Origin: a virus
Taxonomy: Duplodnaviria > Heunggongvirae > Uroviricota > Caudoviricetes
Virus record (IMG/VR): IMGVR_UViG_3300042691_036629
Span: 117,500-171,766 of that record
Reading direction: 5' to 3' (one strand)
DNA length: 54,267 nt
The notes beneath the pieces are model-generated. The model was not told the DNA's origin and ran no database searches. It saw only the letters and a list, made by a program, of their open reading frames with translations. The position numbers were made by a program, and so were the translations under genes. Every line of letters starts with the position of its first letter. The stretch's first letter is position 1. Positions 269 through 54,170 of the stretch are shown here, piece by piece.

Positions 269-553
269 TTATAAACCCAGTTTTCTTAGTTTTTTATCTC
301 TATTGTACTGTAATAAATCTCTTTCATAAACAAATAGGTTCATATCAGAAACACCATGTCCAAGTTCATTAATGGCACCATTATTATAATATAATCGAGT
401 TACTTCATATTTCTTGCCATAAATTAAACCTCTATCATTTGAAATTGAAATGATAAAATCACCAATTGATGGATGATCCTTTCCATAATCAATAACTTTT
501 TTTAGTTTAGGTTTCTCCTCAAATATCTTTAATAAGAGTTTTAATATTTTCAT
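269..553 (-). CDS. C-tag protein, KxIC-family-like
   Basis: LIYGKKYEV motif; ends RDKKLRKLGL. Confidence 0.75.
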   Translation of the reverse strand: MKILKLLLKIFEEKPKLKKVIDYGKDHPSIGDFIISISNDRGLIYGKKYEVTRLYYNNGAINELGHGVSDMNLFVYERDLLQYNRDKKLRKLGL

Positions 554-562
554 AAGTCCAAT

Positions 563-781
563 TTAATCACGAGTTTCTACATTACAGAAGTAATTATCGA
601 AATGACCATTACCACATGTTAAATATATTGAAGTATGACATGTTTCTGATGGTATCTGTTCAAGTTCAGATATATATTTCTCTTTCTTTTTTTTAGACCA
701 AAAGCCAGTGTTTAGACTTTCTATTGATGTATATTCATGAAATATTTCACAATCACATTGTTTACATTTTACTTTCTTCAT
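563..781 (-). CDS. Small putative Zn-binding protein
   Basis: CKQC...CH...CGNGH. Confidence 0.65.
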   Translation of the reverse strand: MKKVKCKQCDCEIFHEYTSIESLNTGFWSKKKKEKYISELEQIPSETCHTSIYLTCGNGHFDNYFCNVETRD

Positions 782-796
782 AATTCGTTTTTATTT

Positions 797-1015
797 TTAT
801 ATACCCAGAAGATCTTTTAGTTTCTGATCTCTATAATACTCTTTATCCATCTGTATTCTGGTTTCATTCATAAAATAATCTATTTTGTATGAATAGTTTG
901 TCTTACCATACCAGTGTATGATTATGTTTTTCTCTTTTATATCCTTTATAATTCCTCTTATGATATATCCATCTTCAATCCAAAGGTATCTGGTACCAAT
1001 CTTTATCTCTTTCAT
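797..1015 (-). CDS. C-tag hypothetical protein
   Basis: Ends RDQKLKDLLGI. Confidence 0.75.
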   Translation of the reverse strand: MKEIKIGTRYLWIEDGYIIRGIIKDIKEKNIIIHWYGKTNYSYKIDYFMNETRIQMDKEYYRDQKLKDLLGI

Positions 1016-1212
1016 ATCCCAAGATTTTTTAGTTTCTTATCTCTTAATAAACTCTTATAGTAGTTATAATCAACACCATAAGCACCACTATTAGGATTCA
1101 GTCTAAACATAATTGAATTACCAAGTAATCTGATATCAAATAAAGGACCGTCGTGTTTAATTCCTTGTGAATGTATAATAAAATATCTTAGTAAATCTTC
1201 ATCTACATTCAT
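1012..1212 (-). CDS. C-tag hypothetical protein
   Basis: Ends RDKKLKNLGI; ATGA overlap with next gene. Confidence 0.75.
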   Translation of the reverse strand: MNVDEDLLRYFIIHSQGIKHDGPLFDIRLLGNSIMFRLNPNSGAYGVDYNYYKSLLRDKKLKNLGI

Positions 1213-1478
1213 ATCCCAATCTCTTTTAGTTTTTGATCTCTAATATTCTGTTTAGTTGAAAACCATCTCCAAATACAATCAACTCCACCAGAACCGGTAA
1301 ATCTTATCCAAGCATTTGATTTATCTCTAACATTTGTACAATAGTAATAAACAGAGCAATATCTATTACTTGTTAGTCTACCATAGTCTTGCACTTTGAA
1401 ATCATACTCTTTACCAACAACTAATTGGTTGGATAAGTTTTTTCCTTTTATTTTATTTGTTATACAAACCATTTTCAT
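1209..1478 (-). CDS. C-tag protein, KxIC family
   Basis: MKMVCI...LVVGKEY; ends RDQKLKEIGI. Confidence 0.8.
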   Translation of the reverse strand: MKMVCITNKIKGKNLSNQLVVGKEYDFKVQDYGRLTSNRYCSVYYYCTNVRDKSNAWIRFTGSGGVDCIWRWFSTKQNIRDQKLKEIGI

Positions 1479-1699
1479 AACCCAAGTTCTTTTAGTTTCT
1501 TATCTCTCCATTCTTTGAGAGTTATAAATCTATTAAAATTATAAATACCAATTACACCACTATCATTTTTAATGGATATACTTGAATTTAATTTATAATT
1601 ATCAATTCTTTTAATTGTATATCCTTTACCATAAGTTAATTTCTGTTTCTTACCATGATCAGATGAATCAATACAAAAAACAATATCACCTTCTTTCAT
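1475..1699 (-). CDS. C-tag protein, KxIC family
   Basis: IVFCID...LTYGKGY...NDSG; ends RDKKLKELGL. Confidence 0.8.
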   Translation of the reverse strand: MKEGDIVFCIDSSDHGKKQKLTYGKGYTIKRIDNYKLNSSISIKNDSGVIGIYNFNRFITLKEWRDKKLKELGL

Positions 1700-1725
1700 A
1701 AACCATATTAAAAGTAAATTATGTG

Positions 1726-1947: not shown

Positions 1948-1959
1948 ATTAGTCTTTGT

Positions 1960-2256: not shown

Positions 2257-2261
2257 ATCCT

Positions 2262-2456: not shown

Positions 2457-2812
2457 ACACCAAGCTCATTTAACTTTTGATCTCTTATGATTCTTTTAAA
2501 GCTCCCATATATCATCTCATATCTTTCTTTATTAGATCCTAATCTATCATAACTATCAACATCAACCCAAATAACATCCCAATATTTATTAAACTCATGG
2601 AAAGTTTCTATTCTAATATATTTAGGGGTTCCGTCGGCATTCCAAACTTTTGGTCTTTCTTCTTCTTCATATCTTACACTTACAATATTTAGTTTATTTT
2701 CTAAATCTCTAACGTTTATTGTAATGGAACCAGGCATTGCCTTAGAAGTTCTTATTATATCTATGTTAAATTCTTCACCGGTTCTTTTTAATATAGCCCT
2801 AACTTTTATCAT
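2453..2812 (-). CDS. C-tag hypothetical protein
   Basis: Ends RDQKLNELGV. Confidence 0.8.
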   Translation of the reverse strand: MIKVRAILKRTGEEFNIDIIRTSKAMPGSITINVRDLENKLNIVSVRYEEEERPKVWNADGTPKYIRIETFHEFNKYWDVIWVDVDSYDRLGSNKERYEMIYGSFKRIIRDQKLNELGV

Positions 2813-3099
2813 ATTCCAAGTTCATTTAGTTTTTGATCTCTTCTCCATTGAACTATAAAGTCATTAAAATTCATTTGTTCCATTTCACTTATACCACTTA
2901 TGATTACTCTTACCCATGGACAATTCATTTGAGCATCAATAAAGGTATCGTAGTTATCAGTTCCTTCGGTATATTTTCTTATAGCATCTTCTAATATAGG
3001 TTTTGGATCTTCATCACCGGCATACATGAATATTGCTATTACACCAGTGCCACCATTTTTAAGTGGGAATGTTGATTGGTTTATTCTTAAATCTTTCAT
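2809..3099 (-). CDS. C-tag hypothetical protein
   Basis: Ends RDQKLNELGI. Confidence 0.8.
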   Translation of the reverse strand: MKDLRINQSTFPLKNGGTGVIAIFMYAGDEDPKPILEDAIRKYTEGTDNYDTFIDAQMNCPWVRVIISGISEMEQMNFNDFIVQWRRDQKLNELGI

Positions 3100-3347
3100 A
3101 TACCCAGTTCTTTAAGTTTCTCTTCTCTCATTGTCTCCACATCCAATTCGTATTCGTATGCATTTTCCCAGCCAGACATATCCTTTCCGTTGACCCACCA
3201 TTTATCATAGTACCTCACGCGAACCTGATCGATAACGAAGTTGGTGGATGTGTTCGGATCGACGTATTTCCTCATTTCTATTATTCTCATTTTAATGTGT
3301 GGTTTCATTACCATGTTTCTTATCTTAACCCAATCTCCTACGTTCAT
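3096..3347 (-). CDS. C-tag protein, SH3-like (VGDWVKI), GC-richer than neighbours
   Basis: Ends REEKLKELGI; about 41% GC over 3151-3300 by hand count. Confidence 0.8.
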   Translation of the reverse strand: MNVGDWVKIRNMVMKPHIKMRIIEMRKYVDPNTSTNFVIDQVRVRYYDKWWVNGKDMSGWENAYEYELDVETMREEKLKELGI

Positions 3348-3577
3348 ATTCCTAATTCGTTTAATTTCTCATCTCTCATTCTCTCCACATCTACTACAAA
3401 TTCATCTGCGGCTTCCCAGGACATTAAAGGTTCTCTATTTAATGTAGATCTATTATGGTACTTCACGAGTATTCGTCCGGATGATATATTAGTATCTGGT
3501 ATTATCTGTATTATTTCCATTTTACCTTTACCAAATTTAAATCCGTTGATGGGTTTTATTAAGTCTCCTACTTTCAT
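3344..3577 (-). CDS. C-tag protein, SH3-like (KVGDLIK)
   Basis: Ends RDEKLNELGI. Confidence 0.8.
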   Translation of the reverse strand: MKVGDLIKPINGFKFGKGKMEIIQIIPDTNISSGRILVKYHNRSTLNREPLMSWEAADEFVVDVERMRDEKLNELGI

Positions 3578-3816
3578 ATACCAAGTTCATTTAGTTTATT
3601 ATCTCTTTCTCTCTGAAAATTTCGGAACCTTTTCACATCATATATCTCCCTGGCCCTTCTATCGTTAATTATGAATATATAGGTTCTACCATTTAAATAT
3701 TTAAGTGATTGTATCTCATATTGTTTACCTTCCGTTAGATATCTCCCTTCTGAGAATGGTATATTTGTTCCACCTTCTATACATACTACGATATCTCCTA
3801 TTCTAAACTCATTCAT
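3574..3816 (-). CDS. C-tag protein, KxIC family
   Basis: IVVCIE...LTEGKQY...NDR; ends RDNKLNELGI. Confidence 0.8.
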   Translation of the reverse strand: MNEFRIGDIVVCIEGGTNIPFSEGRYLTEGKQYEIQSLKYLNGRTYIFIINDRRAREIYDVKRFRNFQRERDNKLNELGI

Positions 3817-4160
3817 ATACCAAGTTCATTTAGTTTCCTTTCTCTAATAATATCTTTGAATTCATTTTCAAGTACTTCAAAGTCATCTAATTTGAAGTTT
3901 ATCTTGTTAGACGTGACTTTTTCGCCAAGCCAAATGGTAGTCCTACTCAAAGTTGTTTCGGAACCACTTGTGATATATGTAACGTTGTGTTCATTTTTTT
4001 TAAACCCCAGACTATATCTTTTTTCGAATCCACTATGTTCTTCCGGATTGTATATGGTTATCGTGTATCTTCCATAAGAAAGGTAGATAAACTCATCTCT
4101 TATAATAGTGAGAGTGAATCCAATATCTTTTACAAATTTTAAAAAGTCTTCTAACATCAT
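3813..4160 (-). CDS. C-tag hypothetical protein
   Basis: Ends RERKLNELGI. Confidence 0.8.
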   Translation of the reverse strand: MMLEDFLKFVKDIGFTLTIIRDEFIYLSYGRYTITIYNPEEHSGFEKRYSLGFKKNEHNVTYITSGSETTLSRTTIWLGEKVTSNKINFKLDDFEVLENEFKDIIRERKLNELGI

Positions 4161-4384
4161 ATACCAAGTTCATTTAGTTTCCTTTCTCTTTCCAATTCAA
4201 TCTTTATAAGTATAATCATTTCCATATACTCAATCCAAGAATCCCATATACCAGTGTAAGCAACACCCTTCAATCCATTTATAAGAACTTTAATTTCTTC
4301 TATGGGTAGTTCATCAATCCATTTCTGTTTCTCTTCTCTACCTTTACTAGCAAACTCTGGTACTAACTCTTCATATGTTCTCAT
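4157..4384 (-). CDS. C-tag hypothetical protein
   Basis: Ends RERKLNELGI. Confidence 0.8.
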   Translation of the reverse strand: MRTYEELVPEFASKGREEKQKWIDELPIEEIKVLINGLKGVAYTGIWDSWIEYMEMIILIKIELERERKLNELGI

Positions 4385-4611: not shown

Positions 4612-4854
4612 CTACTTTAATAAATCATTAAGTTTAATTTCTCTCCACTCTTCTAGTGGAACTACTTCTTCTCTAGTATACCAAGATTCCTTACCTTTGT
4701 TGTTCTTTATAGAAAAATGTTCTTTTCCTTCTATATCAAACAAAGATTTCATATTTGAAAAATCATATCTATAAAATCTTTGTTTGATATCATAGACTTT
4801 TCCCATAGTAAGTGGAATCTGATCCATATGGTTGTTTATACAAATAACTTTCAT
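4612..4854 (-). CDS. C-tag protein, KxIC family
   Basis: MKVICIN...LTMGKVY; ends REIKLNDLLK. Confidence 0.8.
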   Translation of the reverse strand: MKVICINNHMDQIPLTMGKVYDIKQRFYRYDFSNMKSLFDIEGKEHFSIKNNKGKESWYTREEVVPLEEWREIKLNDLLK

Positions 4855-4903: not shown

Positions 4904-5125
4904 TCATATTCCTATCTCTTTTAGCCTTTTCTCTCTCCATTCATCTATCGGCATCACCGTGATCTTGCTGTACCAGTATGTGTTTCCCTCGTCGTCCTGT
5001 ATTAGGTAGATCGGCTCTTCGGTGTTGTTGTCTTTCCCCTGTTCCAGCACGTCGTAGGCCTTTCCTGGGGTGAGGTCCCATTTGCAGTATCCAGGGTGGG
5101 ATTTTCTTATGCAGATTGCTTTCAT
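4904..5125 (-). CDS. C-tag protein, KxIC family, anomalously GC-rich
   Basis: MKAICI...LTPGKAY...DDEG; ends REKRLKEIGI; about 54% GC over 4951-5100. Confidence 0.85.
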   Translation of the reverse strand: MKAICIRKSHPGYCKWDLTPGKAYDVLEQGKDNNTEEPIYLIQDDEGNTYWYSKITVMPIDEWREKRLKEIGI

Positions 5126-5346
5126 ATTCCTAATTCATTTAATTGTTTCTCTCTCCATTCATCTAATGGAATTATAACTCTTCTCGTATAGTATGATCCA
5201 TATCCAGCATCGTTAATAATAAAGAATCTCATTTTATCATCCGGGAATTTTATTTCTTTAGCTTTTTTAACGACATTATAGATCTTACCTAAAGTTAGTT
5301 CCATATAAGTATCACCGACGTATTCGTTTATACAAATAGCTTTCAT
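5122..5346 (-). CDS. C-tag protein, KxIC family
   Basis: MKAICIN...LTLGKIY...NDAG; ends REKQLNELGI. Confidence 0.85.
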   Translation of the reverse strand: MKAICINEYVGDTYMELTLGKIYNVVKKAKEIKFPDDKMRFFIINDAGYGSYYTRRVIIPLDEWREKQLNELGI

Positions 5347-6293: not shown

Positions 6294-6743
6294 TTATTCT
6301 ATTCCTAATTCTGATAATTTTCTATCTCTGATCTTTTTCTGATCAACAACTATCTCTACTATTCTCTTATCTATCCACTTCTCTTTCATAAAGTTAATTA
6401 TACTAGGTCTGTTATTAGGATCTCTTGGATAAAGATCAAATGAAGAGAAATCAGTAGCAGTAACCTTAACACTATCTTTTGATACTTCTAAGATGGTTAC
6501 CTCATAAGTTACTTTATATTCTATTTTAACAGGATCTCTTTTCGGGTTGGTGTTTACAATCCCATAGTCCTTTATTATCCCAGTATCACCAGGCATTATA
6601 TCAAATATCTCTTTTTCTTTTACAACTACCTTTTTAGCAGAATCTAATTCTGTTCTGAGTGTAGTGTTTTTATCAAGGAGGTTTGATATGGTTATAGCAG
6701 AGATTACCAGTGCTATAGACAAACATATAATAACTATTAACAT
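6294..6743 (-). CDS. C-tag membrane-anchored protein, paralogue of 45371..45790
   Basis: N-terminal hydrophobic helix; YEVTILEVS..VKV...IINFMKEKWID; ends RDRKLSELGIE. Confidence 0.8.
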   Translation of the reverse strand: MLIVIICLSIALVISAITISNLLDKNTTLRTELDSAKKVVVKEKEIFDIMPGDTGIIKDYGIVNTNPKRDPVKIEYKVTYEVTILEVSKDSVKVTATDFSSFDLYPRDPNNRPSIINFMKEKWIDKRIVEIVVDQKKIRDRKLSELGIE

Positions 6744-6952
6744 ATTCCTAATTCATTTAGTTTTTCTTCTCTAATTTGTTGTATGGTTTTAAAAAAATCT
6801 TGACTTATAGTAATCCAACGATGTTTATCATCACATATTATATATTTACCATTCTTAAATTGTTCAGTAAATACTTTGGGGTCGGCAATTCTATACCACT
6901 TACCAACTGTTATAGAACTAACATCATCATTATTAATACAAAGTACTTTCAT
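6737..6952 (-). CDS. C-tag protein, KxIC family
   Basis: MKVLCIN...ITVGKWY; ends REEKLNELGIC. Confidence 0.8.
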   Translation of the reverse strand: MKVLCINNDDVSSITVGKWYRIADPKVFTEQFKNGKYIICDDKHRWITISQDFFKTIQQIREEKLNELGIC

Positions 6953-8543: not shown

Positions 8544-8774
8544 CTAGGATATTCCCAATTCTTTTATTCTAATTTCTCTCCATTTTTCTAGTGGCATTAA
8601 AACATCCTTGTAATACCATCTTTGTATACCAGCATCATTTGTTACGACCCATGCTCCTTTATCTTTATCAAATAAATAACCGTTTTTATTTGAATCAACA
8701 TTATATATTTTACCTGGTGTTAGTTTTACTTTACGTCCAGCTAAGTCATAATCATCTATACAAATAACTTTCAT
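8544..8774 (-). CDS. C-tag protein, KxIC family
   Basis: MKVICID...LTPGKIY...NDAG; ends REIRIKELGIS. Confidence 0.85.
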   Translation of the reverse strand: MKVICIDDYDLAGRKVKLTPGKIYNVDSNKNGYLFDKDKGAWVVTNDAGIQRWYYKDVLMPLEKWREIRIKELGIS

Positions 8775-9052
8775 TCTAATATCTTATTAAGTTTTTCATC
8801 TCTAAACATGGTATGGTTTATGAATAGTTCTTTCATAAACATACCGATATAATTATCATAAATATCAACACCATCAACTTTAAATCCTGTTGGTTCTGGT
8901 ATAACTAATTCAGATGGTGTTGATTTACCTTCACCAAATATTCTATATACTTTATTCATAAACTCTTCACCAACATACCATTTACCTTCTTCTACAAGAA
9001 TGTTTTCTGTTCCTGATAATATAAAAGTTTTTATACAGAATATTTTTTCCAT
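8771..9052 (-). CDS. C-tag protein, KxIC-family-like
   Basis: KIFCIK...EEGKWY; ends RDEKLNKILE. Confidence 0.75.
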   Translation of the reverse strand: MEKIFCIKTFILSGTENILVEEGKWYVGEEFMNKVYRIFGEGKSTPSELVIPEPTGFKVDGVDIYDNYIGMFMKELFINHTMFRDEKLNKILE

Positions 9053-9765
9053 TAGTGTTTGTGATTTATTACTTTAGTTTCTCCTTTTTGAACGTGTTCG
9101 CGTTCGTTAAGTATTCTTTTTATTTTTAGATTTCCTCTTCCTTGATTTATAAACAAACTTCTTTTATACATCTTTAAAAGTCTTTCAGTAGAGAGTTTAT
9201 CAAGTTTTTTATCAATTGAAATATTAGTAAGATCTTCTTTTTTTCGTTTACGTAAACAAACACCATCTACATATCTATGTTCGGTATCTCCTACTTTAAC
9301 ACTCCATAGTTGGTTACCACCAAGATATTGGTGTTTGAATGTTATAATACCATAGTGTCCATTGTAGTGTACTGGGTCTCCTATTTCAAAAGACTTTGAA
9401 TATTCTTTCTTTGCTTCAATAACTTGACGATAATCAAACTTATATTGTTTAGTTGGAGTTCTAAGTTCTTCTAATCGTTTTTGTTGTTCTTGTGTATAGA
9501 TAATACTTTCTACATCAAATGATGGTAGTTCTTCTCTATCTGTTTTTAAGATGAAGTCTATAAGACTATCACGAACTTCAGCTTTTATATCAAGCATTTC
9601 ACACTCAATAGTAAATTGTGGTTTGTTATTATAATACTCTAAACTTATGTAAGTAATATCATAATATTTATCATCTTTAACTTTACTTTTCTCGATAGAA
9701 ATCAATCTCCAAAAGTCTTTTATATTGGATCTAATTTTATTTAGAATATTTTCATTATGTTCCAT
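9052..9765 (-). CDS. Hypothetical protein with SH3-like segment
   Basis: FEIGDPVHYNGHYGII. Confidence 0.7.
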   Translation of the reverse strand: MEHNENILNKIRSNIKDFWRLISIEKSKVKDDKYYDITYISLEYYNNKPQFTIECEMLDIKAEVRDSLIDFILKTDREELPSFDVESIIYTQEQQKRLEELRTPTKQYKFDYRQVIEAKKEYSKSFEIGDPVHYNGHYGIITFKHQYLGGNQLWSVKVGDTEHRYVDGVCLRKRKKEDLTNISIDKKLDKLSTERLLKMYKRSLFINQGRGNLKIKRILNEREHVQKGETKVINHKH

Positions 9766-12101: not shown

Positions 12102-12335
12102 TTATATTCCTAATTCTTTAAGTTTAATTTCTCTTACTTCTGATATTGTTAAAAAATTATCAGCGTTATACTTTCTGAGCATTCCGTCTTCACATTTTAC
12201 TATATAAGATGGTTCGTCTGGTTTGAATGTGATTACATCATATATGATTGGTGCTGGTTCACATTCATACCACTCACCTTTTATAAGGACTTGGGTATCT
12301 ACCCAATTTACATTTATTTTGGATTGGCATTTCAT
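12102..12335 (-). CDS. C-tag protein, KxIC-family-like
   Basis: LIKGEWY...EDG; ends REIKLKELGI. Confidence 0.8.
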   Translation of the reverse strand: MKCQSKINVNWVDTQVLIKGEWYECEPAPIIYDVITFKPDEPSYIVKCEDGMLRKYNADNFLTISEVREIKLKELGI

Positions 12336-14087: not shown

Positions 14088-14705
14088 TTATAAACCCAAT
14101 TCTTTTAGTTTTCTTTCTCTTATGTTAGATTTCATTATTGCTTCCATATTATGATAAACATCTTTAGTTGATTCCCAAACTTTGTTTGATACGGTACGTT
14201 TAACTATCTCATTATTAATTTCTATATAGAGTCTTTTCTTAGAAATAAAGTAGATTTGATTTATTTGATGTATCTCATATGGTACTCCAATACTTTTAAT
14301 GAAATCTTCATCTTGTATCTCAGTAACATAGATAGAATCTGTATCAATATAAAGAACAGTATCAATATATTTATTAAAGTAATATTCCATTATAGAATAC
14401 ATATATCCACTAATTCTAACTGAGTTTTTAAATTCTAACTTACCAAACCAACTATTTAATATTAGATTTTCATAATCTGAATGGTTATTCCTTTTAAGTA
14501 GTTCTTTTAAATCATCTATCTTTATATTTGATTTATCATCACCTGTTATTAACCCTTCGTCATAAAACTGTATAATAAGATGGGTATAAAGTTTTTTAAA
14601 CTCTATTTTTAAGATATTACTATGTATTGATAAGTTATTAAACTTAGAGTTTAACTCACAAAAACCACCACTGTTATTATGATTATCTAAAAATTGTTTA
14701 AGCAT
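14088..14705 (-). CDS. C-tag protein with family-B DNA polymerase-like motifs (fragment-sized)
   Basis: LILNSWFG (cf. motif B NSxYG) and VLYIDTDSIY (cf. motif C YGDTDS); ends RERKLKELGL; ATG at 14705. Confidence 0.65.
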   Translation of the reverse strand: MLKQFLDNHNNSGGFCELNSKFNNLSIHSNILKIEFKKLYTHLIIQFYDEGLITGDDKSNIKIDDLKELLKRNNHSDYENLILNSWFGKLEFKNSVRISGYMYSIMEYYFNKYIDTVLYIDTDSIYVTEIQDEDFIKSIGVPYEIHQINQIYFISKKRLYIEINNEIVKRTVSNKVWESTKDVYHNMEAIMKSNIRERKLKELGL

Positions 14706-14877
14706 TAATTCCAATTTGTTTTAATTTCCAATCTCTATAACATTTCTTACAAATCGTAACATTTATTTCTGTTTTAAGACCATTAATTTTAGCGGGTATA
14801 GTATAAATATCTTCACCAGTTATCACCTCATCACATTTAAAACAATTTGGTGATTTATATGACCAACTTCCACTCAT
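14698..14877 (-). CDS. C-tag Zn-finger-like small protein (not in ORF track)
   Basis: CFKC...CKKC; ends RDWKLKQIGINA. Confidence 0.75.
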   Translation of the reverse strand: MSGSWSYKSPNCFKCDEVITGEDIYTIPAKINGLKTEINVTICKKCYRDWKLKQIGINA

Positions 14878-15089: not shown

Positions 15090-15494
15090 TTACTCTTCTT
15101 TTTTTATTTTCTTATCATTTGGAAGTTTTACTTTCACACCTACTGGTTTCCATCTAAAGTATGGAGGTAAACATTCACAACACATTTCTCTCTCACCACA
15201 CGTTCCACAATAATTACCATCACCATCATTTATCATGTATTTAAGAGCTTTCTCATTTATCTCTATCTCTGGAACTTTTTCACCACAGAAAGGACAAAAA
15301 TTAACTTCTATATAACTTTCATGTTTTCCCCAAGAAAAATCTCTAAAACCAAATGATAACCATTTAGGTTTTTTTGTGGATGGTAGATCAATTGAATACG
15401 AATCTTCAAAATTAAATTGAAGTTTTACAACTTTATGTTTTTTAGATTCATCACAACAATTTGTTGTTATAACATGTTCATATATTCTACTCAT
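15090..15494 (-). CDS. Cys-rich putative Zn-binding protein
   Basis: CC, FCPFCG, YCGTCG, CCEC. Confidence 0.7.
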   Translation of the reverse strand: MSRIYEHVITTNCCDESKKHKVVKLQFNFEDSYSIDLPSTKKPKWLSFGFRDFSWGKHESYIEVNFCPFCGEKVPEIEINEKALKYMINDGDGNYCGTCGEREMCCECLPPYFRWKPVGVKVKLPNDKKIKKEE

Positions 15495-15754
15495 TATAAA
15501 ATCTTATTTAATTGCATTTCTCTCCATTCTTCTAAAGTCACAAAGTTTTCTTTAGAAAAAATTAAACTATGAGAACCATATTCAGTTTTATCATCAAACC
15601 AAAATCTAATATAACTTGATGATAAGTATCTATCTAATTCATAGTAAGGTAAATCATAAACTTTACCAACTTCTAAGAAGTCGTCTTTTTTAAGATACTC
15701 ATTTCCCATACTATCTCTTCTCAAGATTTTATCATTTACACAAACTAATTTCAT
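15494..15754 (-). CDS. C-tag protein, KxIC family
   Basis: MKLVCVN...LEVGKVY; ends REMQLNKIL. Confidence 0.8.
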   Translation of the reverse strand: MKLVCVNDKILRRDSMGNEYLKKDDFLEVGKVYDLPYYELDRYLSSSYIRFWFDDKTEYGSHSLIFSKENFVTLEEWREMQLNKIL

Positions 15755-17242: not shown

Positions 17243-17296
17243 AACCTACTTCCTTTCTTCGTCGATGCTCGTTGTTTAGTAGTAACCAATCAGAAG

Positions 17297-17377
17297 TAGT
17301 CAGGACAGGATTCGAACCTGTATCATAACGCTATAAGGAACTTAATCCACGATGACTTCCCATTAGCCCACCTGACT
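17297..17377 (-). ncRNA. Non-canonical tRNA-like RNA B
   Basis: Acceptor AGTCAGG/CCTGACT+A; D-arm GGCT-AATGGGA-AGTC; T-arm ACAGG-TTCGAAT-CCTGT; no 5-bp/7-nt anticodon arm. Confidence 0.7.
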
Positions 17378-21152: not shown

Positions 21153-21410
21153 TTATAAAATTTCATTGAGTTTTATATCTCTTAATTCACTTTTCGTGTA
21201 GAAGTATTTACCATAATATAATTCATGATCTTCTTCTAAGTAAAATCCAAAAGATCTACTATCAGTTATTCTAACCCATATTCTACTCGAACTTTTTGGA
21301 ATTGGAACAGAGTCTTCCTCGACTATTTGGTATTTATTACCTAATAACATCTCAAATTCAACTCCATACTTTATTAAAGGAACACCTTTAGATATTAGAA
21401 ATTCATCCAT
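21153..21410 (-). CDS. C-tag hypothetical protein
   Basis: GNKYQI; ends RDIKLNEIL. Confidence 0.75.
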   Translation of the reverse strand: MDEFLISKGVPLIKYGVEFEMLLGNKYQIVEEDSVPIPKSSSRIWVRITDSRSFGFYLEEDHELYYGKYFYTKSELRDIKLNEIL

Positions 21411-44869: not shown

Positions 44870-45160
44870 ATGATTAATTGGGATAATTATAAGATTGGTC
44901 AAGAACTAAATCTTAAAATAGTAGCCACTAATTCAGTAGCAAACTTAAAAGTTAAAATATCTGATTTTGAATGGGCACCTAATAGAACATTACATCTTTC
45001 TGATGTAGAAGTTATTGAATCTGATGTGGAAGATTATCACACAGGTGACTTGTTAAGACTACCGATGATAGTAAAAGATGAATGTTTTAAATTCTTAGTA
45101 GTAACGCACTATAAATCTTACAAAGAAGTAGTAAAAGAAGGATCAATTTGTTTAAACTAA
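44870..45160 (+). CDS. Hypothetical protein
   Basis: TAATATATA 4 nt before ATG. Confidence 0.7.
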   Translation: MINWDNYKIGQELNLKIVATNSVANLKVKISDFEWAPNRTLHLSDVEVIESDVEDYHTGDLLRLPMIVKDECFKFLVVTHYKSYKEVVKEGSICLN

Positions 45161-45378
45161 TCCTTTTTTAAAATTTTATTAAGTTTCCATTCTCTAAGTG
45201 CGGCTGGAACTTTTGAATAATAATTTTCATGTATAGAAAATGTTAGGTTTTCTTTACCATTCTTTATGGTTATAAAATAAACATCACCTATTCTATTTTC
45301 TCGTATAAGTTCATAATCAAAGAAGTTAATATAAACCTCTTCGATTTCTCCATAAACACTTATTCTAAACTTATCCAT
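45157..45378 (-). CDS. C-tag hypothetical protein
   Basis: Ends REWKLNKILKKD. Confidence 0.75.
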   Translation of the reverse strand: MDKFRISVYGEIEEVYINFFDYELIRENRIGDVYFITIKNGKENLTFSIHENYYSKVPAALREWKLNKILKKD

Positions 45379-47570: not shown

Positions 47571-47640
47571 TTCCAGTGATTTTTTTATTCTAGTTAGCTT
47601 ATCGCCTCCAACTCTTTCATATAATTTATTTTATTTTTAG

Positions 47641-47714
47641 TGGAGAATACCGGAATCGAACCGGTCACCTCTTGTCTGCCAGACAAGCGCTCTAGCCAAA
47701 TGAGCTAATTCCCC
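47641..47714 (-). tRNA. tRNA-Ala(GGC)
   Basis: Full cloverleaf; G3:U70; loop CT-GGC-AG; CCA not encoded. Confidence 0.95.
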
Positions 47715-47718
47715 AATT

Positions 47719-47862
47719 AAGTAGAGAAATTTAGATGAGTGTGTTTTTACTATGCTATCCATTACACCACCACCGCATTATTTTTATTTGAGCGGTGACC
47801 AGGACTCGAACCTGGATCAGTCGTTTGAAATACGAAGTAACACTCGTTCTTTACTACTACTT
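47719..47862 (-). ncRNA. Circularly permuted tRNA-like RNA without an anticodon loop
   Basis: 3' half (T-arm CCAGG-TTCGAGT-CCTGG, TCACCGC+T; 47791-47845) precedes a 14-nt spacer and the 5' half (GCGGTGG, D-arm; from 47776); the outer ends pair with each other. Confidence 0.75.
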
Positions 47863-47864
47863 TG

Positions 47865-47936
47865 AGCGAGAAATGAGATTCGAACTCACGACACTCTGGT
47901 TGGTAACCAGATACTCTACCACTGAGCTATTCTCGC
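47865..47936 (-). tRNA. tRNA-Gly(ACC)
   Basis: GCGAGAA/TTCTCGC+T (Gly identity G1-C72, C2-G71, G3-C70, U73); TCTGG-TT-ACC-AA-CCAGA. Confidence 0.9.
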
Positions 47937-47947
47937 AATTACAAAAG

Positions 47948-48094
47948 TTAAACTTTCAACTTTTGTTTTCTTTTTCTTTTGATCATCTTCATTATGAATT
48001 TGAATACATGATCATTTGCATCCTTTCTTAATTTTACCTTTGATGATTCGAAACTTCCCGTTAATACTTCTTTACTTTTTTTCATTTGTTTCAT
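47948..48094 (-). CDS. 48-aa basic peptide between tRNAs (not in ORF track)
   Basis: MKQMKKSKEVLTGSF...KRKRKQKLKV. Confidence 0.5.
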   Translation of the reverse strand: MKQMKKSKEVLTGSFESSKVKLRKDANDHVFKFIMKMIKRKRKQKLKV

Positions 48095-48110
48095 ATTTTT
48101 ATTTTTTGTG

Positions 48111-48184
48111 TGGAGCTAGGGGTGTACGATACCCCATCTCCGCATTGCAAGTGCGGTATGTTAGCCAGTTGTCACCATAGCCCC
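48111..48184 (-). tRNA. tRNA-Ala(TGC), atypical T-loop
   Basis: GGGGCTA/TAGCTCC with G3:U70; CCGCA-CT-TGC-AA-TGCGG; T-loop ATCGTAC. Confidence 0.9.
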
Positions 48185-48229
48185 AAATTGAAGGAAGACT
48201 AACCTTCGTTGTAACTTAAAGTCTTTTTG

Positions 48230-48317
48230 AGCAGGTAGTGGGATTCGAACCCACGATGTGAACCTTATCTGACCGGATTGGAAATCCGGAGCCATCGACC
48301 AACTAGGCGACACCTGC
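48230..48317 (-). tRNA. tRNA-Gly(TCC) with long variable region
   Basis: GCAGGTG/TACCTGC+T; CCGGA-TT-TCC-AA-TCCGG; 18-nt variable region; 88 nt in total. Confidence 0.9.
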
Positions 48318-48854
48318 ATGTATTTCTCTATGACAATTAGAACAAACTAAAATACATTTATCTAATTCATTTTTTATTCTATCCCAAGAAAGATTATATT
48401 TCCCGGAGATTGTAAAATCTTTTTCACTCGGATTGGTATGATGAAAATCAAGTGCTTGAATACATTTATTATACCCACATAAAATACATTCACCACCTTT
48501 ATACTCAACCGATTTTATTTTTAACATTGTTCTTCTTTTCAATCTATAAATTTTAGAATTTTTTTTAGCTGCATCACTATCAACCCTCTTAATATCAGCA
48601 TGTTTAATTACTGTTGTTTCTGAAATTCCAAAATATATAGATGTTTCTTTTTTTGTGTGTGTTTTATAATATTCTTTTAATTGTAAAATTTCATCTTCAT
48701 TTAACTCTTTATATTTTTTTAATCCAATATCACTTAGTCCATTTTCCTTACACCATTTTGATACTATTGATTTTGAACATTTTAATATTTCACTTATTTT
48801 ATTTAAACTGAATCCATTTTTTCTCAATTCAATTATTTTACTTTCCAAACTCAT
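48303..48854 (-). mobile_element. Free-standing HNH homing endonuclease with N-terminal HTH
   Basis: CILCG...LDFHH...E..KC..VCSNCHREIH; last codons overlap the tRNA-Gly 5' end. Confidence 0.85.
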
Positions 48855-48910
48855 ATACTTTCCAATTCTTTCTTATATATATTAAAGTATATGGGTTCTC
48901 ACCCAAAATG

Positions 48911-48991
48911 TCGATAGGGTGGGATTCGAACCCACGTTTTCAACTTCCCGCTACGGATATTCAATGTATAAGATTGAACCGGTACCTATCG
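48911..48991 (-). ncRNA. D-armless tRNA-like RNA with CU-UAU-AC loop
   Basis: CGATAGG/CCTATCG+A; T-arm GTGGG-TTCGAAT-CCCAC; TTCAAT-CTTATAC-ATTGAA hairpin starts only 6 nt after the acceptor strand. Confidence 0.65.
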
Positions 48992-49061
48992 TTTTAATTC
49001 TTTTCGTGAATCACTCGGTGGATTTTGATAGACCAGTAGACCACTTACTACCTGTTTCTTA

Positions 49062-49376
49062 TTATAACTTTATAAATGTTTCACTCTTAATTGATTTACT
49101 AATCCATCTAGCTAATTCAGAACCTCTAATTTCAGCTTCAAATCTAGTTGTGCCTAAATCTTCTGATAAAATAACAGTTTCTACTTCATACATAGATAAA
49201 CCACTTTCATCATTAAATGTTGGTCCTTCTTGTGTTGTTGATATTGGGAATTGGTATAACTCACCAAATACTTCAACATTGTAATATAAATTACCAGCGA
49301 TATAGTGACTGAATCTTGCCATTGTTTTAGACTTCATTAAGTCTTTTTTTACTTCTACTTCATTAAACATAATCAT
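49062..49376 (-). CDS. Hypothetical protein in tRNA cluster
   Basis: 104 aa ORF. Confidence 0.75.
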   Translation of the reverse strand: MIMFNEVEVKKDLMKSKTMARFSHYIAGNLYYNVEVFGELYQFPISTTQEGPTFNDESGLSMYEVETVILSEDLGTTRFEAEIRGSELARWISKSIKSETFIKL

Positions 49377-49390
49377 TTATTTTTTATTTG

Positions 49391-49473
49391 TTGGAAGGGA
49401 GGGATTCGAACCCCCGTACCCGTTAGGGAGCGGATTTACAGTCCGCCGCATTTAACCACTCTGCCACCTTCCA
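49391..49473 (-). tRNA. tRNA-Tyr(GTA), class II, U1-A72
   Basis: TGGAAGG/CCTTCCA+A; GCGGA-CT-GTA-AA-TCCGC; long variable arm. Confidence 0.92.
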
Positions 49474-49487
49474 GTTTTTATTTCATT

Positions 49488-50114
49488 TTATTTTTTTAAT
49501 CTTCCCAATTCCCATCCTTCAGGGATTATCTCATTTTTTTTTATTTTTTTATTCTCATACCCATTTGTTATCCAACAAGTTCCAAATTGAGAATTATTCT
49601 CACCTTTTTGAATTTCACTCAACTTTTCACTTATCTTAATTTTAGATTCTTGTGAATGTTTTTTACCACTGAAACCTTTACTATTTAAATTATTTTTATT
49701 ACCTTTTAGTTTATTTGATATTTTTTTTATCCAATTATCTTTAAAATCAATATCTTTCCTTTTTTCATTTAGTCTATCATTACCAGCTTTAGAACATTTC
49801 ATTTGATGTTCCTCATCTTTAAATCCACCACTACCACCAACTCTCAAATTCATACAAAGAGTTTCATTTATTAGATTTGATGTAATAAGATCAATTTCCG
49901 CTTTTATCAGTTCATCTCTATTATCATAAAATTCCAATATTTCAATTTTAAAATTCTCTTTACCATACTTTCTTATTGAGTATCTTAATTTTTTACCAGA
50001 TCCCAAATATCCATCGTTTAAATTATTTGTACTGTGCATACCATAATAATAATTATGATTTATCAAATTTGTCGTTTTATACAAATAGTGATAACATTTA
50101 ATTTTTCTTGGCAT
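49488..50114 (-). mobile_element. Seg-like GIY-YIG homing endonuclease with NUMOD3-like motif
   Basis: YLYKTTNLIN..YYYGMH...YLGSG...E..LI...MN...GG; GKKHSQESKIKIS. Confidence 0.9.
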
Positions 50115-50170
50115 TTTTAAATTTTATTTTTATTTATATATTAAATATAATAGTACAAAAATGTCTAAAG

Positions 50171-50238
50171 TGGGAGACGTGAGACTCGAACTCACCTGCT
50201 AGGATTTTACAGATCCGGCCGTCACCATAACCCCTCCC
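50171..50238 (-). tRNA. Reduced tRNA-Tyr(GTA)-like gene (68 nt, possibly pseudo)
   Basis: GGAT-CT-GTA-AA-ATCC; T-arm GTGAG-TTCGAGT-CTCAC; shrunken D-arm; short variable loop; 7/66 mismatch. Confidence 0.6.
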
Positions 50239-50249
50239 AAGTATAAACT

Positions 50250-50281
50250 AAAAAACCCAACTGATTTTGTCAGTTGGGTTT
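50250..50281 (-). terminator. Attenuator-type intrinsic terminator ahead of the tRNA operon
   Basis: AAACCCAACTGA-CAAAA-TCAGTTGGGTTT, ending in a U6 run. Confidence 0.85.
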
Positions 50282-50306
50282 CATAATATTTTTTTATTAA
50301 AATATA

Positions 50307-50402
50307 TTATAATACACTTTTACTGACAATAGGTAATCTATACCCCGCCTCATAAGCCTCGTAGCCTCTCGCTTCTATTGATATGTTAACTATTGTTCTC
50401 AT
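50307..50402 (-). CDS. Putative 31-aa attenuator leader peptide (not in ORF track)
   Basis: MRTIVNISIEARGYEAYEAGYRLPIVSKSVL; lies between promoter and terminator; TTGTCAGT (50322-50329) is complementary to the terminator's ACTGACAA (50267-50274). Confidence 0.75.
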   Translation of the reverse strand: MRTIVNISIEARGYEAYEAGYRLPIVSKSVL

Positions 50403-50436
50403 TGTATATTTTTTTAATTGTTTTTATTTTACTCTA

Positions 50437-50467
50437 CAAAGATACGGAAGTTTTTTAAAACACCAAA
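50437..50467 (-). promoter_or_regulatory. Bacteroidota sigma-A-type promoter of the leader/tRNA operon
   Basis: TTTG-N19-TATCTTTG. Confidence 0.85.
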
Positions 50468-50487
50468 TCTTTTTATATTTTTTTTAG

Positions 50488-50561
50488 TAGCGGGAGCTGG
50501 ATTCGAACCAACGACCTCAAGGTTATGAGCCTTGCGAGCTACCAGACTGCTCTATCCCGCG
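50488..50561 (-). tRNA. Initiator tRNA-fMet(CAT)
   Basis: C1xU72 mismatch; CAAGG-CT-CAT-AA-CCTTG; full cloverleaf. Confidence 0.92.
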
Positions 50562-51830: not shown

Positions 51831-51925
51831 ATCTTTTTTATTTTTTTTCTTCTCTTCATTTGTAAAAAGTTAAGCTTCATAGTAAAACTATTTGGATATA
51901 ATGAAGCGAAGTCAAAATTTATCAT
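51812..51925 (-). CDS. 37-aa peptide with PolB motif-A-like sequence and variant C-tag (not in ORF track)
   Basis: MINFDFASLYPNSF...KRRKKIKKIWKIEI. Confidence 0.5.
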   Translation of the reverse strand: MINFDFASLYPNSFTMKLNFLQMKRRKKIKKIWKIEI

Positions 51926-51932
51926 TTTCCAT

Positions 51933-52124
51933 TTATCTTCCATATATCTTTTTAATTTTAATTTTACGATCGTGTGCTTTCATTAAAGATTTACTTGCCT
52001 TTAACCATCTTTCTATATAATCTTGATCACCAGACTCAAGATCAATATTAAAGTATTTTCCTGAATTACCATATGATGGTAACACTCTTATGCTATTATA
52101 TAAGTTTGGATCAAATGTTTTCAT
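51933..52124 (-). CDS. Hypothetical protein with variant C-tag
   Basis: Ends RKIKIKKIYGR. Confidence 0.65.
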   Translation of the reverse strand: MKTFDPNLYNSIRVLPSYGNSGKYFNIDLESGDQDYIERWLKASKSLMKAHDRKIKIKKIYGR

Positions 52125-52738
52125 ATTTTTGGTGTTAATTTTCTAAAGTCTGTTAGTACGTTATTATGTAATTGCTTAAATTCATTTTCTAATTCTTCCC
52201 AAGTCCAAATTTTACTCTTTATCTTATCCCAAATAAAGTTAGCACAAGTAAAATCATTTATTTTACCAGTTTCAACTATTTGTGAAGAAAACATTGGTAT
52301 TCTTAAAGAGTGATATAAAGATTTAACACCAATGTTGTATTCATCAGCAACTGTTAACTTCTTTTTACACTTTACCCAACTATTTGAACTAACATGAGAA
52401 GTAGCGTGTCTTAATTTTTTTAAATCTAATTTTAGATCAAACTTCATATCTTCTTTCAACTTGGCCCAATCTGGAGCAAAATAACATTCTAAGTTTTTTG
52501 GCATATGCCAGTCTAAGTCGGCTTTAAACTTATCAGGAGTGTAAATATGAATGTTATATAAATCAGTTTTAATTTCAATTGATTCAACTGAGTTCTTACC
52601 AACAATAACAACATCCCAATCAGAATTATCTGAATGAGTGCCGTAAATTCTACTACCAAATATTATCACATTTAATATTCGAGATTGATGTAAACCAGAA
52701 GCTTCTATAATATCATTCAAAATTTTATTCTCATCCAT
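52121..52738 (-). CDS. Pol-beta-superfamily nucleotidyltransferase
   Basis: IIFGSRIYGTH...SDWDVVIV (hG[GS]...DhD); TATATTTG at 52743-52750. Confidence 0.85.
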   Translation of the reverse strand: MDENKILNDIIEASGLHQSRILNVIIFGSRIYGTHSDNSDWDVVIVGKNSVESIEIKTDLYNIHIYTPDKFKADLDWHMPKNLECYFAPDWAKLKEDMKFDLKLDLKKLRHATSHVSSNSWVKCKKKLTVADEYNIGVKSLYHSLRIPMFSSQIVETGKINDFTCANFIWDKIKSKIWTWEELENEFKQLHNNVLTDFRKLTPKI

Positions 52739-52804
52739 ATAACAAATATATTAAAAATATTTAATATATATTATTTTGGCTTTAGATTTTTTATATATAA
52801 TAAC

Positions 52805-53599
52805 ATGAAATATACAATTAATGATACTAAATTTTTCCCAAAAACAAATGGGGTATATAAAATATCTTTCACCAACTCAATTAATGGAAAAGTTTATATA
52901 GGGAGTGCTTCTGGTGGATATGGATTTTATACTAGATGGAAATCACATATTTCAAGTTTAAAAAATAAAAAATCAGGAAATACAATATTGCAACTAGCAA
53001 CAAATAAATATGATTTAAGTAATATTATATTTGAAGTTTTGGAATTTTGTGAAAAGGATGATTGTCTAAATAGAGAACAGTTCTATATAGATAAATATAA
53101 CTCTTATAATTATGGGTATAATGGAAGACCAAAATCATCAAATAATGGTTGCTTACCAATGAAAAAAGTAACAAAAGATAAAATATCAGATAAATGGAAA
53201 ATAAAACGAGATTTTTATGTGGGTGAAGTTAGAAGATTGTATATTAATGAGAATAAAAATACTAGGGAAATATCAGATATTTTGAATATAAGTAGAACTT
53301 TTATTCAAAAAATATTCAAAGAGAATGAAATAGAACCTAGAAAAAATTTTGGTCTCCAAAAGGTAAGATTTTACCAATATAAAGACGGAATTTTAATAAA
53401 AGAATGGGATTCGATAAATGATTGTGTGATTAGAAATTCATTCAATTCTAATGGTATTAGAATTGTTTTAAATGGTCAATGTTTTTTTTACAAAAACTTT
53501 CATTTTAATTATTTAAAACTAGATGTAGATGAGATAAATAAATTAGAAAATGAATTTAAAATTAAATCAAAATGTAGAAAATATTATTATATTAACTAG
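52805..53599 (+). mobile_element. Free-standing GIY-YIG homing endonuclease
   Basis: GVYKI...NGKVYIGSA...RW..H...EQFYID....YN. Confidence 0.9.
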
Positions 53600-53844
53600 T
53601 CATTCCCATCTAATAATTTATTTAATTTAATATCTCTCATAATACTTGGATCTAAACTTTCTAAAATACCTTCTACACAATCTTGACAGATTATCATAAC
53701 ATGATTCTCCAATGTTCTTATACTAGCACATCTTACATTGTAAGAATCACAACCATCGCATATTTTGTTTTCTTCAACAAACATTAGTGATGCCTTTTCA
53801 ACTCTGGGTCTATCAATAAACTTATCTAAGTGTATTTTTCTCAT
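53596..53844 (-). CDS. C-tag Zn-finger-like protein
   Basis: CDGC...CQDC; ends RDIKLNKLLDGND. Confidence 0.75.
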   Translation of the reverse strand: MRKIHLDKFIDRPRVEKASLMFVEENKICDGCDSYNVRCASIRTLENHVMIICQDCVEGILESLDPSIMRDIKLNKLLDGND

Positions 53845-54170
53845 TAGTCTAATAAATTATTTAACTTCAACTCTCTTATAATTCTTAAATCAAAAATTAA
53901 GGTCTCATAAGTTGAATATTTATAAGTTTTACCACCATCATAAGAATAAGTATCATACTCTTTGTTATATTTAACAAGTGTATAGTCTAATGGTTTCAAT
54001 AACTTAAGCTTATAAAAACTACCATCACCTGGTATGTATATTACTTGAAAAGCATAGACACCATTATTTACTCTTCCTTCAATGTCATCTAATATTTCAT
54101 CGCTATATACTATACTACCCTTGATGAAAAAATTAGTAATTGTATCTCTTATGTAACTTTTTAGTGTCAT
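53844..54170 (-). CDS. C-tag hypothetical protein
   Basis: Ends RELKLNNLLD; TATCTTTG at 54190-54197. Confidence 0.75.
   Translation of the reverse strand: MTLKSYIRDTITNFFIKGSIVYSDEILDDIEGRVNNGVYAFQVIYIPGDGSFYKLKLLKPLDYTLVKYNKEYDTYSYDGGKTYKYSTYETLIFDLRIIRELKLNNLLD

Follow-up and report, generated by a model that had tools for sequence, protein, structure and literature searches.

A C-terminal peptide tag on the small accessory proteins of a Mahaphage-type megaphage: a candidate address helix for a clade-specific partner

Accessory-gene arrays with a shared C-terminal tag

We analyzed a 54,267-nt stretch of viral DNA (in the following the window; IMG/VR record IMGVR_UViG_3300042691_036629, positions 117,500 to 171,766), i.e., the terminal 54 kb of a 171,766-bp contig with 27.7% GC. 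The genes of the window are small, closely packed and nearly all located on the (-) strand. Many of their products end in a common peptide, here called the tag, with the consensus h-R-[DE]-x-[KR]-[LI]-x-x-[LI]-[G/L]-[I] (h, hydrophobic) a few residues from the stop. Tag positions are numbered h0, R1, [DE]2, x3, [KR]4, [LI]5, 6, 7, [LI]8, G/L9 and I10, and tags with Gly or Leu at position 9 are referred to as G-class or L-class.

Judged by its sequence, the contig is a fragment of an uncultured Mahaphage-type megaphage of Bacteroidota-type hosts, since its conserved proteins are closest to those of the uncultured 'huge phage' genomes LR745206 and LR756502 (634-642 kb); the baseplate wedge, e.g., is 62-63% identical to their copies. 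More distant relatives are LR756504, LR756501, LR756500, the Lak phages and cultured jumbo phages of Tenacibaculum, Flavobacterium, Chryseobacterium and Sphingomonas. A megablast search with 18 kb of the window against GenBank phages gave no match (0). For comparison we used the relatives G001, G002, G003 and LR745206 (in full or to the contig ends) as well as the sister megaphages LR756504 and LR756501.

A regular expression for the motif (R-[DEN]-x-x-[LI]-x-x-[LIV]-[GLIF], applied to the last 18 aa of greedily called open reading frames, ORFs) matches 60 of 145 ORFs of the window, which agrees well with the about 65 of roughly 145 coding sequences counted by hand in the first-pass annotation. 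With a position-specific scoring matrix (PSSM) derived from the tags, where a tag is called at >=12 bits and <=7 aa from the stop, 61 of 139 called window genes are tagged (38 G-class, 20 L-class, two with F and one with I at position 9), as are 93/327 genes of the whole 172-kb contig. Chance can be discarded as the origin of the tag. Per-protein shuffling, a check that the first-pass annotation had suggested, yields on average 0.17 regular-expression matches (maximum 2, 500 trials) compared to the 60 observed, and moving the PSSM window 25 aa upstream leaves 0 tags.

When the window is translated in six frames, the (-) strand holds 69 matches of the expression, 65 of them within 6 aa of a stop, and the three (+) strand frames hold 2, one of which is within 6 aa of a stop. 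Among the called window proteins, 60 of 62 matches lie <=5 aa from the end; over all tags, the distance from motif to stop varies from 0 to 6 extra residues. In five related genomes, strong matches (>=18 bits) are terminal in 244 cases and internal in 14, all of the latter being L-class. Internal L-class tags within the window are found at residue 65 of protein 9052-9765 (-) and at residue 26 of protein 29364-29726 (-); each of these two may have arisen by fusion of a tagged gene to the gene downstream of it.

Three tagged genes (3096-3347, 3344-3577 and 3574-3816) are masked by a spurious (+) strand ORF. The (+) strand example at 28768 that had been put forward earlier does not hold up well, i.e., it matches the regular expression only and scores below 12 bits; six good (+) strand tags are found elsewhere on the contig, away from gene 28768-28944. 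The arrays and individual tags of the window are listed below (window coordinates and strand).

269-54170, (-): accessory-gene arrays, 61 tagged among 139 called genes, from the PSSM and regular-expression census
272-301, (-): tag of gene 269-553 (94 aa), G-class, 24.3 bits
1478-1507, (-): tag of gene 1475-1699 (74 aa), SH3-like family by its hidden Markov model (HMM), 28.3 bits
2812-2841, (-): tag of gene 2809-3099 (96 aa), top score of the window, 30.3 bits
3099-3128, (-): tag of gene 3096-3347 (83 aa), under the spurious (+) ORF, from the six-frame list, 25.9 bits
3347-3376, (-): tag of gene 3344-3577 (77 aa), paralogue of gene 3096-3347 by BLASTP cluster, 28.6 bits
3577-3606, (-): tag of gene 3574-3816 (80 aa), SH3-like family, weak phrog_4927 match, 26.5 bits
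4160-4189, (-): tag of gene 4157-4384 (75 aa), helix-rich by sequence and outside the SH3-like family by HMM, 24.5 bits
4615-4644, (-): tag of gene 4612-4854 (80 aa), L-class, SH3-like body, 27.5 bits
5125-5154, (-): tag of gene 5122-5346 (74 aa), modelled with AlphaFold2 (AF2, pLDDT 92), tag is helix 61-71, SH3-like matches
6740-6772, (-): tag of gene 6737-6952 (71 aa), one residue beyond I10, 29.4 bits
8547-8579, (-): tag of gene 8544-8774 (76 aa), SH3-like family, 24.6 bits
12105-12134, (-): tag of gene 12102-12335 (77 aa), LR745206 orthologue is L-class (orthologue pair), 27.5 bits
14091-14120, (-): tag of gene 14088-14705 (205 aa), mini family-B polymerase palm by fold, tag kept in orthologues
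14701-14736, (-): tag of gene 14698-14877 (59 aa), Cys-rich and Zn-ribbon-like, two residues beyond I10, 20.8 bits
15497-15523, (-): tag of gene 15494-15754 (86 aa), L-class, stops at position 9, 25.2 bits
21156-21182, (-): tag of gene 21153-21410 (85 aa), followed by an intergenic spacer, 27.4 bits
24113-24142, (-): tag of gene 24110-24577 (155 aa), LR745206 orthologue is G-class, 27.6 bits
28906-28941, (+): doubtful tag of gene 28768-28944 (58 aa), regular-expression match, <12 bits
29137-29166, (-): tag of gene 29134-29367 (77 aa), helix-rich by sequence, 23.1 bits
30441-30470, (-): tag of gene 30438-30959 (173 aa), no Pfam or PHROG match, 25.2 bits
32059-32088, (-): tag of gene 32056-32685 (209 aa), 26.8 bits
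37274-37303, (-): tag of gene 37271-37870 (199 aa), uncoupled (TAA, then spacer), 18.6 bits
45160-45195, (-): tag of gene 45157-45378 (73 aa), L-class, two-residue extension, 21.9 bits
53599-53637, (-): tag of gene 53596-53844 (82 aa), L-class, three-residue extension, 26.3 bits
53847-53876, (-): tag of gene 53844-54170 (108 aa), L-class, 22.0 bits

A short capped helix under peptide-level selection

The logo of 95 tags reads [KLI] at -3, [SEQA] at -2, E at -1 and a hydrophobic residue at 0, followed by R1 (invariant by construction), [DE]2, any residue at 3, [KR]4, [LI]5, [NK]6, E7 (41%), [LI]8, G (53%) or L (38%) at position 9, and I10 before the stop. K, D, Q and N are also common at position 7, such that L5-x-E7 occurs in only 39/95 tags.

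On a helical wheel (100 degrees per residue), positions 0, 1, 4, 5 and 8 fall inside an arc of 140 degrees, while the variable positions 3, 6 and 7 lie outside. The conserved residues thus share one face, as the amphipathic helix proposed in the first-pass annotation would have it, but the helix is not a classical amphipathic one: R1 and K4 share their face with the hydrophobic residues h0, L5 and L8. By sequence, the G9-I10 end resembles a Schellman C-cap in which L5 would contact I10. We read the tag as a short helix, capped at its ends, whose conserved residues all point to one side. In mechanistic terms, the tail would be a portable tag: a helix of three turns that has its N-cap (S/T/D/E) at -2 or -4 and presents the face h0/R1/K4/L5/L8, which would end in a Schellman-type C-cap at Gly9-Ile10 or continue through Leu9.

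Codon usage within the tag varies. L5 is encoded by TTA (40), CTA (19) and CTT (13), L8 by TTA (37), CTT (12) and TTG (8), and G9 by GGA (29), GGT (18) and GGG (3). In three genomes, codon homozygosity at L5, L8 and G9 equals the background expected from the genes' own usage; in G003 (36.6% GC) four codons are nearly equally frequent at L8. Furthermore, the same motif is kept across relatives of 28-37% GC. Since the Leu and Gly codons follow the background and the motif persists over this GC range, selection on the tag acts on the peptide and not on the DNA, which confirms the earlier reading of its synonymous codon variation as protein-level selection. A nucleotide repeat or boundary element is ruled out by the background codon homozygosity in the three genomes and by the mere 2 matches in (+) frames.

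There is a secondary nucleotide signal, i.e., the codons GGA and ATA show an about twofold excess at positions 9 and 10, which results in ATATGA stop/start junctions, and the A-rich codons AGA, AAA, TTA and ATA are mildly over-used in the tag. In addition, stop/start overlaps are found for 48/76 tagged genes compared to 24/98 untagged small genes. These three observations are what one would expect of a translation device, where the nascent peptide or the A-rich DNA aids termination-reinitiation or provides start context in a host without Shine-Dalgarno pairing. On the other hand, 27/85 tagged genes are uncoupled from a downstream start and still have perfect tags. Start coupling therefore does not explain the motif, and the first-pass statement that the motif persists without a downstream overlap is borne out. 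The background-like variation of the Leu and Gly codons, including the four codons at L8 in G003, points in the same direction. Moreover, a distance to the stop that varies by up to six residues is unfit for an exit-tunnel mechanism, and composition cannot account for position-specific Leu, Gly and Arg. We consider a translation device very improbable.

Carriers of the tag

Tagged proteins are short (median 86 aa, range 52-310 aa) and evolve fast: a reciprocal best hit in LR745206 is found for only 9 of 93, and 3 of the 150 ortholog pairs between LR745206 and LR756504 contain a tagged protein. Where carrier orthologues can be paired (27-59% body identity), they keep the tag, with G-class endings replaced by L-class ones or vice versa. 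Of the 45 tagged proteins scanned, none reaches a curated Pfam cut-off, and a PHROG scan of the carriers gives nothing at the curated cut-off either, with weak hints (phrog_4927 and DUF7244) for the SH3-like family described below only. Many untagged proteins do reach the Pfam cut-off, the neighbours including methyltransferases, nucleases, FolD, LemA and TPM. That is, recognizable enzymes lack the tag, as had been noticed in the first pass.

With the tails removed, 78 of 95 carrier bodies are BLASTP singletons. An iterated HMM search, again without tails, joins 21 of 93 tagged proteins and one protein with a decayed tail into a single family (E-values 1e-10 to 1e-23) with the pattern MKxICI...LTxGKxY and more members in related contigs. 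For one of its representatives, the product of gene 5122-5346, the AF2 model shows an SH3-like barrel of five strands and, behind it, helix 61-71, which corresponds to the tag. SH3 domains top both structure searches, albeit weakly (TM 0.45-0.55 and Z about 5, respectively). A tail-less SH3-like barrel, which might act as the reader of the tag, was not among the family members found; all of them carry the tail.

A different fold is predicted for the product of gene 14088-14705, which conserves YIDTDS and KKR[YL] in nine orthologues and adopts a palm fold with Foldseek matches to archaeal and eukaryotic family-B polymerases (PolB, E ~1e-7). This mini PolB palm (205 aa) shows no exonuclease, N-terminal or thumb domain, and its neighbours are unrelated small tagged genes. 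Its orthologues (45-50% identity) all keep the tag at the end of a long C-terminal helix. The position of the motif-A Asp is occupied by E or S, and the protein is conserved in megaphage contigs of 629-687 kb. The replicative family-B polymerase itself appears to be split into two genes about 100 kb apart in LR745206, at 130.6-132.0 kb (-) and 233.9-234.3 kb (+), i.e., an N-terminal part of ~513 aa and a C-terminal part of 474 aa with a T4-like clamp tail; in G003, the corresponding locus lies at 60.7-61.1 kb.

Further carriers look Cys-rich and Zn-ribbon-like or helical by sequence. Several folds thus carry the tag, with one divergent family contributing about a fifth of the carriers. The bodies, described at first as unrelated, are so with respect to SH3-like, PolB palm, Zn-ribbon and helical carriers, but not for the 21/93 members of the SH3-like family.

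It is this family that gives room to an explanation without any common reader, where the tail is the last recognizable remnant of common descent or an intramolecular cap in a vastly expanded small-protein family that diverges rapidly, spread by tandem duplication and 3'-end recombination. The tail is present on every family member, its helix is modelled confidently as part of the domain, tandem arrays exist (e.g., 9 tagged genes in the 4.2-kb contig L035), and remote homology is invisible to BLASTP. However, the PolB palm, Zn-ribbon-like and helical-looking carriers cannot share the ancestry of an SH3-like barrel, and the conserved residues occupy one face whatever the body. The proteome-wide consensus shifts and the exclusion of an N-terminal tag (see below) are also unexpected for a cap acting in cis. 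We judge this explanation unlikely.

Distribution across phages and cells

Within the genomes compared, the fraction of tagged genes differs strongly.

This contig: 172 kb, 28% of genes tagged
G001: 85 kb, 27.5% of genes tagged
G002: 281 kb, 9% of genes tagged
G003: 344 kb, 18% of genes tagged
LR745206: 635 kb, 12% of genes tagged
LR756504: 636 kb, 0.4% of genes tagged
LR756501: 735 kb, 0% of genes tagged

When the 16 C-terminal residues are searched blindly for enriched spaced triplets, other tails emerge in the two sister megaphages. In LR756504, ~81-112 proteins end in R-K-x-[RK]-I-[ED]-x-L-h. This tail is a shifted relative of the tag of the contig, differs from it in charge and is likewise found on SH3-like bodies. 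LR756501 has an unrelated tail, ...DPYGEE[DEN]W[DNSE], on ~45 proteins of 55-843 aa (e.g., at 500-506 and 552-560 kb of the record). For LR756500, of which 400 of 462 kb were covered, no C-terminal tag of comparable strength was found. A DNA-pattern scan gave chance-level counts of the broader core pattern in LR756500 and Lak-B5, and the G-class DNA pattern was not found in the cultured jumbo phages pT24, PTm1, MaF61, MA9V-2 and PAU. In full-text searches of the literature, neither the tag nor the DPYGEE tail was found described in phages.

A reader common to all tagged proteins predicts that the tag shifts proteome-wide when the reader changes, and the clade-specific tags of LR756504 and LR756501 match this prediction.

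Among 185,579 species genomes, a degenerate pattern hits 18 loci, roughly as many as expected by chance, and the motif is not the ending of any cellular protein family. The only loci with several tags are two small phage-like contigs: L035 (4.2 kb, binned in a Cloacimonadota metagenome-assembled genome, MAG) and L032 (3.5 kb with 3 tagged genes, binned in an Acidimicrobiaceae MAG). Both almost certainly derive from these phages and ended up in bacterial MAGs through mis-binning. On these numbers, the idea that the tag mimics a C-terminal motif of the host can be rejected.

The same scan weighs on the idea that the tag docks the carriers onto a host hub for take-over (sliding clamp, RNA polymerase, ClpX, a chaperone or the ribosome), with the tag variants reflecting host lineages. 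The h-x-x-h spacing of the tag resembles, by sequence, that of PIP-box and LD-type motifs (LDxLLxxL) and of the tails of T4 gp43, gp33 and gp55, which are often C-terminal and of which many clients share one hub; one carrier is polymerase-derived, and early expression is likely. Yet the tag has neither the Gln nor the aromatic pair of the PIP box (Q-x-x-[LIM]-x-x-[FY]-[FY]) and the QL[SD]LF motif. The C-terminal PolB piece of LR745206 ends in ...VVMDIFGGFK, i.e., a T4-like hydrophobic clamp-type tail instead of the tag. In addition, the clamp families PF02916, PF09116 and PF02768 have no match in the contig and five megaphage genomes, where a divergent clamp could escape detection. Because the replicative PolB ends differently and no clamp family was detected, we dropped the notion of a polymerase clamp-binding tail, which is ruled out in this form. 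Hubs of the host are further disfavoured by the absence of the motif from cellular protein families, by the single consensus of phages from 28 to 37% GC next to sharply different tags in closely related clades, and by the cultured relatives on Flavobacteriia hosts, which lack the tag. Docking to a host hub is therefore improbable in our assessment.

An N-terminal tag and the timing of expression

Six of the seven genomes examined also encode an N-terminal tag that resembles a capsid-targeting sequence. No protein carries both tags (0/84, while ~12 are expected from the tag frequencies; Poisson P ~4e-6), in line with the initial impression that N-tagged proteins lack the C-terminal one.

To assess expression timing, we considered the Bacteroidota-type -7 box TAnnTTTG 10-30 nt before start codons. 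It is found for 22/64 gapped genes of the accessory region, where ~4.5% are expected, and for 6/53 genes in the virion half of the contig. These boxes suggest that the accessory genes are probably transcribed by the host RNA polymerase, early in infection, which makes it plausible that the tag marks early proteins, as had been supposed.

Both observations bear on capsid loading, i.e., on whether the tag binds a scaffold or inner capsid component such that variable proteins are packaged and injected with the DNA. Phage T4 offers the model: the targeting peptide is the sole conserved feature of its hypervariable internal proteins, which is the same pattern as seen here. Its capsid targeting sequence (CTS) was reportedly described by Mullaney and Black in 1996 for the internal proteins IPI, IPII and IPIII and for Alt. 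Like the tag, the CTS is a terminal peptide of ~10 residues, forms the only shared part of hypervariable accessory proteins and, in T4, is read by one machinery. In favour of loading, the carriers are fast-evolving ORFans, megaphage heads are large, and most clade-restricted conserved proteins belong to the virion module, a possible seat of a co-evolving reader. However, the CTS is N-terminal (after Met), is cut at L/I-x-E by the prohead protease and occurs on a handful of proteins, whereas the tag is C-terminal, helical and present on 10-28% of genes, with no consistent protease site (E7 in 39/95 tags). More than 100 distinct cargo species would be required. The separate CTS-like N-terminal tag never occurs together with the C-terminal one, and the host sigma-A-type -7 boxes of the tagged arrays point to early expression. 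Capsid loading thus appears rather unlikely.

A proposed partner in trans, with the Clp machine as candidate reader

We favour, with a probability of roughly 0.5, the reading that the tag is a docking or address helix that would be read in trans by one partner co-evolving with the phage clade. The tag would have been placed and retained at the C-terminus of more than 100 fast-evolving accessory proteins of different folds, which are probably early and transcribed by the host RNA polymerase. One common partner would recognize it in trans and would differ between phage clades. Given that the partner would change with the clade, a phage-encoded reader is likelier than a universal hub of the host.

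The most concrete candidate for this partner, though a doubtful one, is a Clp machine of the phage, i.e., an N-domain-less ClpC-like unfoldase with VGF loop acting with ClpP paralogues, whose action might amount to a timed removal or remodelling of the accessory proteome. Clp protease and chaperones have been noted in large Bacteroidetes phages (PMC9723584). On the contig, a ClpP gene is located at 54562-55314 (-). Its 250-aa product has an intact Ser/His/Asp triad and a C-terminal extension of ~25 residues, and shares 80-82% identity with the LR745206 and G003 copies. The gene is part of a syntenic block, with an HU-like gene close by. LR745206 and G003 have two ClpP copies each and LR756504 three. 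The ClpC-like unfoldase (~700 aa) is encoded by LR745206, G002, G003 and LR756504, that is, by all four near-complete genomes with a helical tag; the 172-kb fragment comprises the ClpP gene but no ClpC-like gene. The protein lacks a Clp_N domain, combines a UVR-type middle domain with a VGF ClpP-docking loop, and is 85-100% identical over >120 database clusters. In G003 it is encoded at L067:13802-15919 (+) and shows a stretch of acidic residues (EDDDD) close to the N-terminus. LR756501, the genome with the unrelated tag, encodes GroEL and a ClpB-like protein with Clp_N but without VGF, and no ClpP. In the five cultured relatives without tag, neither ClpP nor the ClpC-like protein was found.

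Short C-terminal peptides on diverse proteins are familiar from ssrA- and MuA-type tails and from the XB peptide of SspB, which are read by an AAA+ unfoldase or adaptor, and the phages considered here encode both ClpP and a ClpC-like unfoldase. Nevertheless, the ssrA tag is attached during translation and unstructured, its last residues (LAA-COOH) being the defining ones, while the tag studied here is gene-encoded, predicted to be helical, carries an internal R/K/L/L face and tolerates 0-6 extra residues.

Several points speak against a Clp reader or against a common reader in general. Clp genes, ClpP among them, are also present in LR756500 and Lak-B5, which both lack the tag, and G002 is tagged although ClpP was not detected in it. 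Because the clades are few and related, the co-occurrence of Clp and tag amounts to one or two events. In classical Clp degrons, the chain is unstructured and the final residues are the conserved ones, whereas the tag is helical in a high-confidence model and its L-class end varies. For members of the SH3-like family, the helix may be no more than a component of the fold, and the tag variants could equally track different hosts.

A complex prediction for the ClpC-like protein of G003 and an SH3-like tagged protein scored 0.00, which, being run without controls, speaks neither for nor against binding. The acidic N-terminal stretch of the ClpC-like protein is unsupported as a receptor of the tag; the ClpC-like protein of LR756504, where the tag is more basic, lacks that stretch. 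Other readers were screened by presence and absence. Of 94 proteins common to the tag-bearing genomes, 32 are absent from both LR756504 and LR756501, and 8 only from LR756501. The screen yields no clean candidate, almost all of these proteins being virion-module proteins or FolD. Among five genomes, no peptidase S41 (Tsp-type) was found, and a chaperonin is present only in LR756501.

Relation to known address systems and significance

Two further systems resemble the tag. Encapsulin and microcompartment peptides are C-terminal addresses, either short peptides or helices, on unrelated proteins that lead to one shell, and encapsulin shells share the HK97 fold with phage capsids. Their consensus differs, however, and their cargo sets are small; here, no shell is known and the genes look early. 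The peroxisomal targeting signal 1 (PTS1, -SKL) is likewise a proteome-wide C-terminal address code read by one receptor, but is a eukaryotic tripeptide at the very end of the protein, with known receptor and compartment. We know of nothing comparable in phage-infected bacteria, and to our knowledge terminal address peptides of phages are known only at small scale, e.g., the T4 CTS.

Within the contig studied here, one peptide marks a quarter of the genes of a phage, and these genes are exactly the ORFans that escape annotation ('dark matter'). If one reader handled all of them, more than 100 uncharacterized proteins per genome would gain a shared functional context, and the tag would serve as a sequence handle for accessory and counter-defence genes in metagenomes as well as, together with its reader, a portable pair for engineering Bacteroidota. 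It would further imply that megaphages organize their proteome in time or space with machinery of their own. More tentatively, Mahaphage-type phages might run private C-terminal codes per clade (5-28% of genes) next to a separate N-terminal code, each read by a dedicated phage machine, e.g., an N-domain-less ClpC/ClpP, that sorts, times or removes the accessory proteome in the course of infection. Such a virus-encoded proteome-sorting system would have no described bacteriophage counterpart. Even in a conservative reading, the tag is a very specific lineage marker.

Other features of the contig

The gene of FolD (methylene-tetrahydrofolate dehydrogenase/cyclohydrolase) is located at contig positions 23269-24153 (+). 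FolD is 72-79% identical among tag-bearing phages and undetectable in LR756504 and LR756501. At window positions 17296-17377 (-), ARAGORN reports a tRNA with a four-base anticodon (taag) and no identity called. A tRNA cluster (Ala-GGC, Gly-ACC, Ala-TGC, Gly-TCC, Tyr and Met) spans window positions 47640-50561 (-) and is interrupted by an HNH-type endonuclease gene at 48303-48854.

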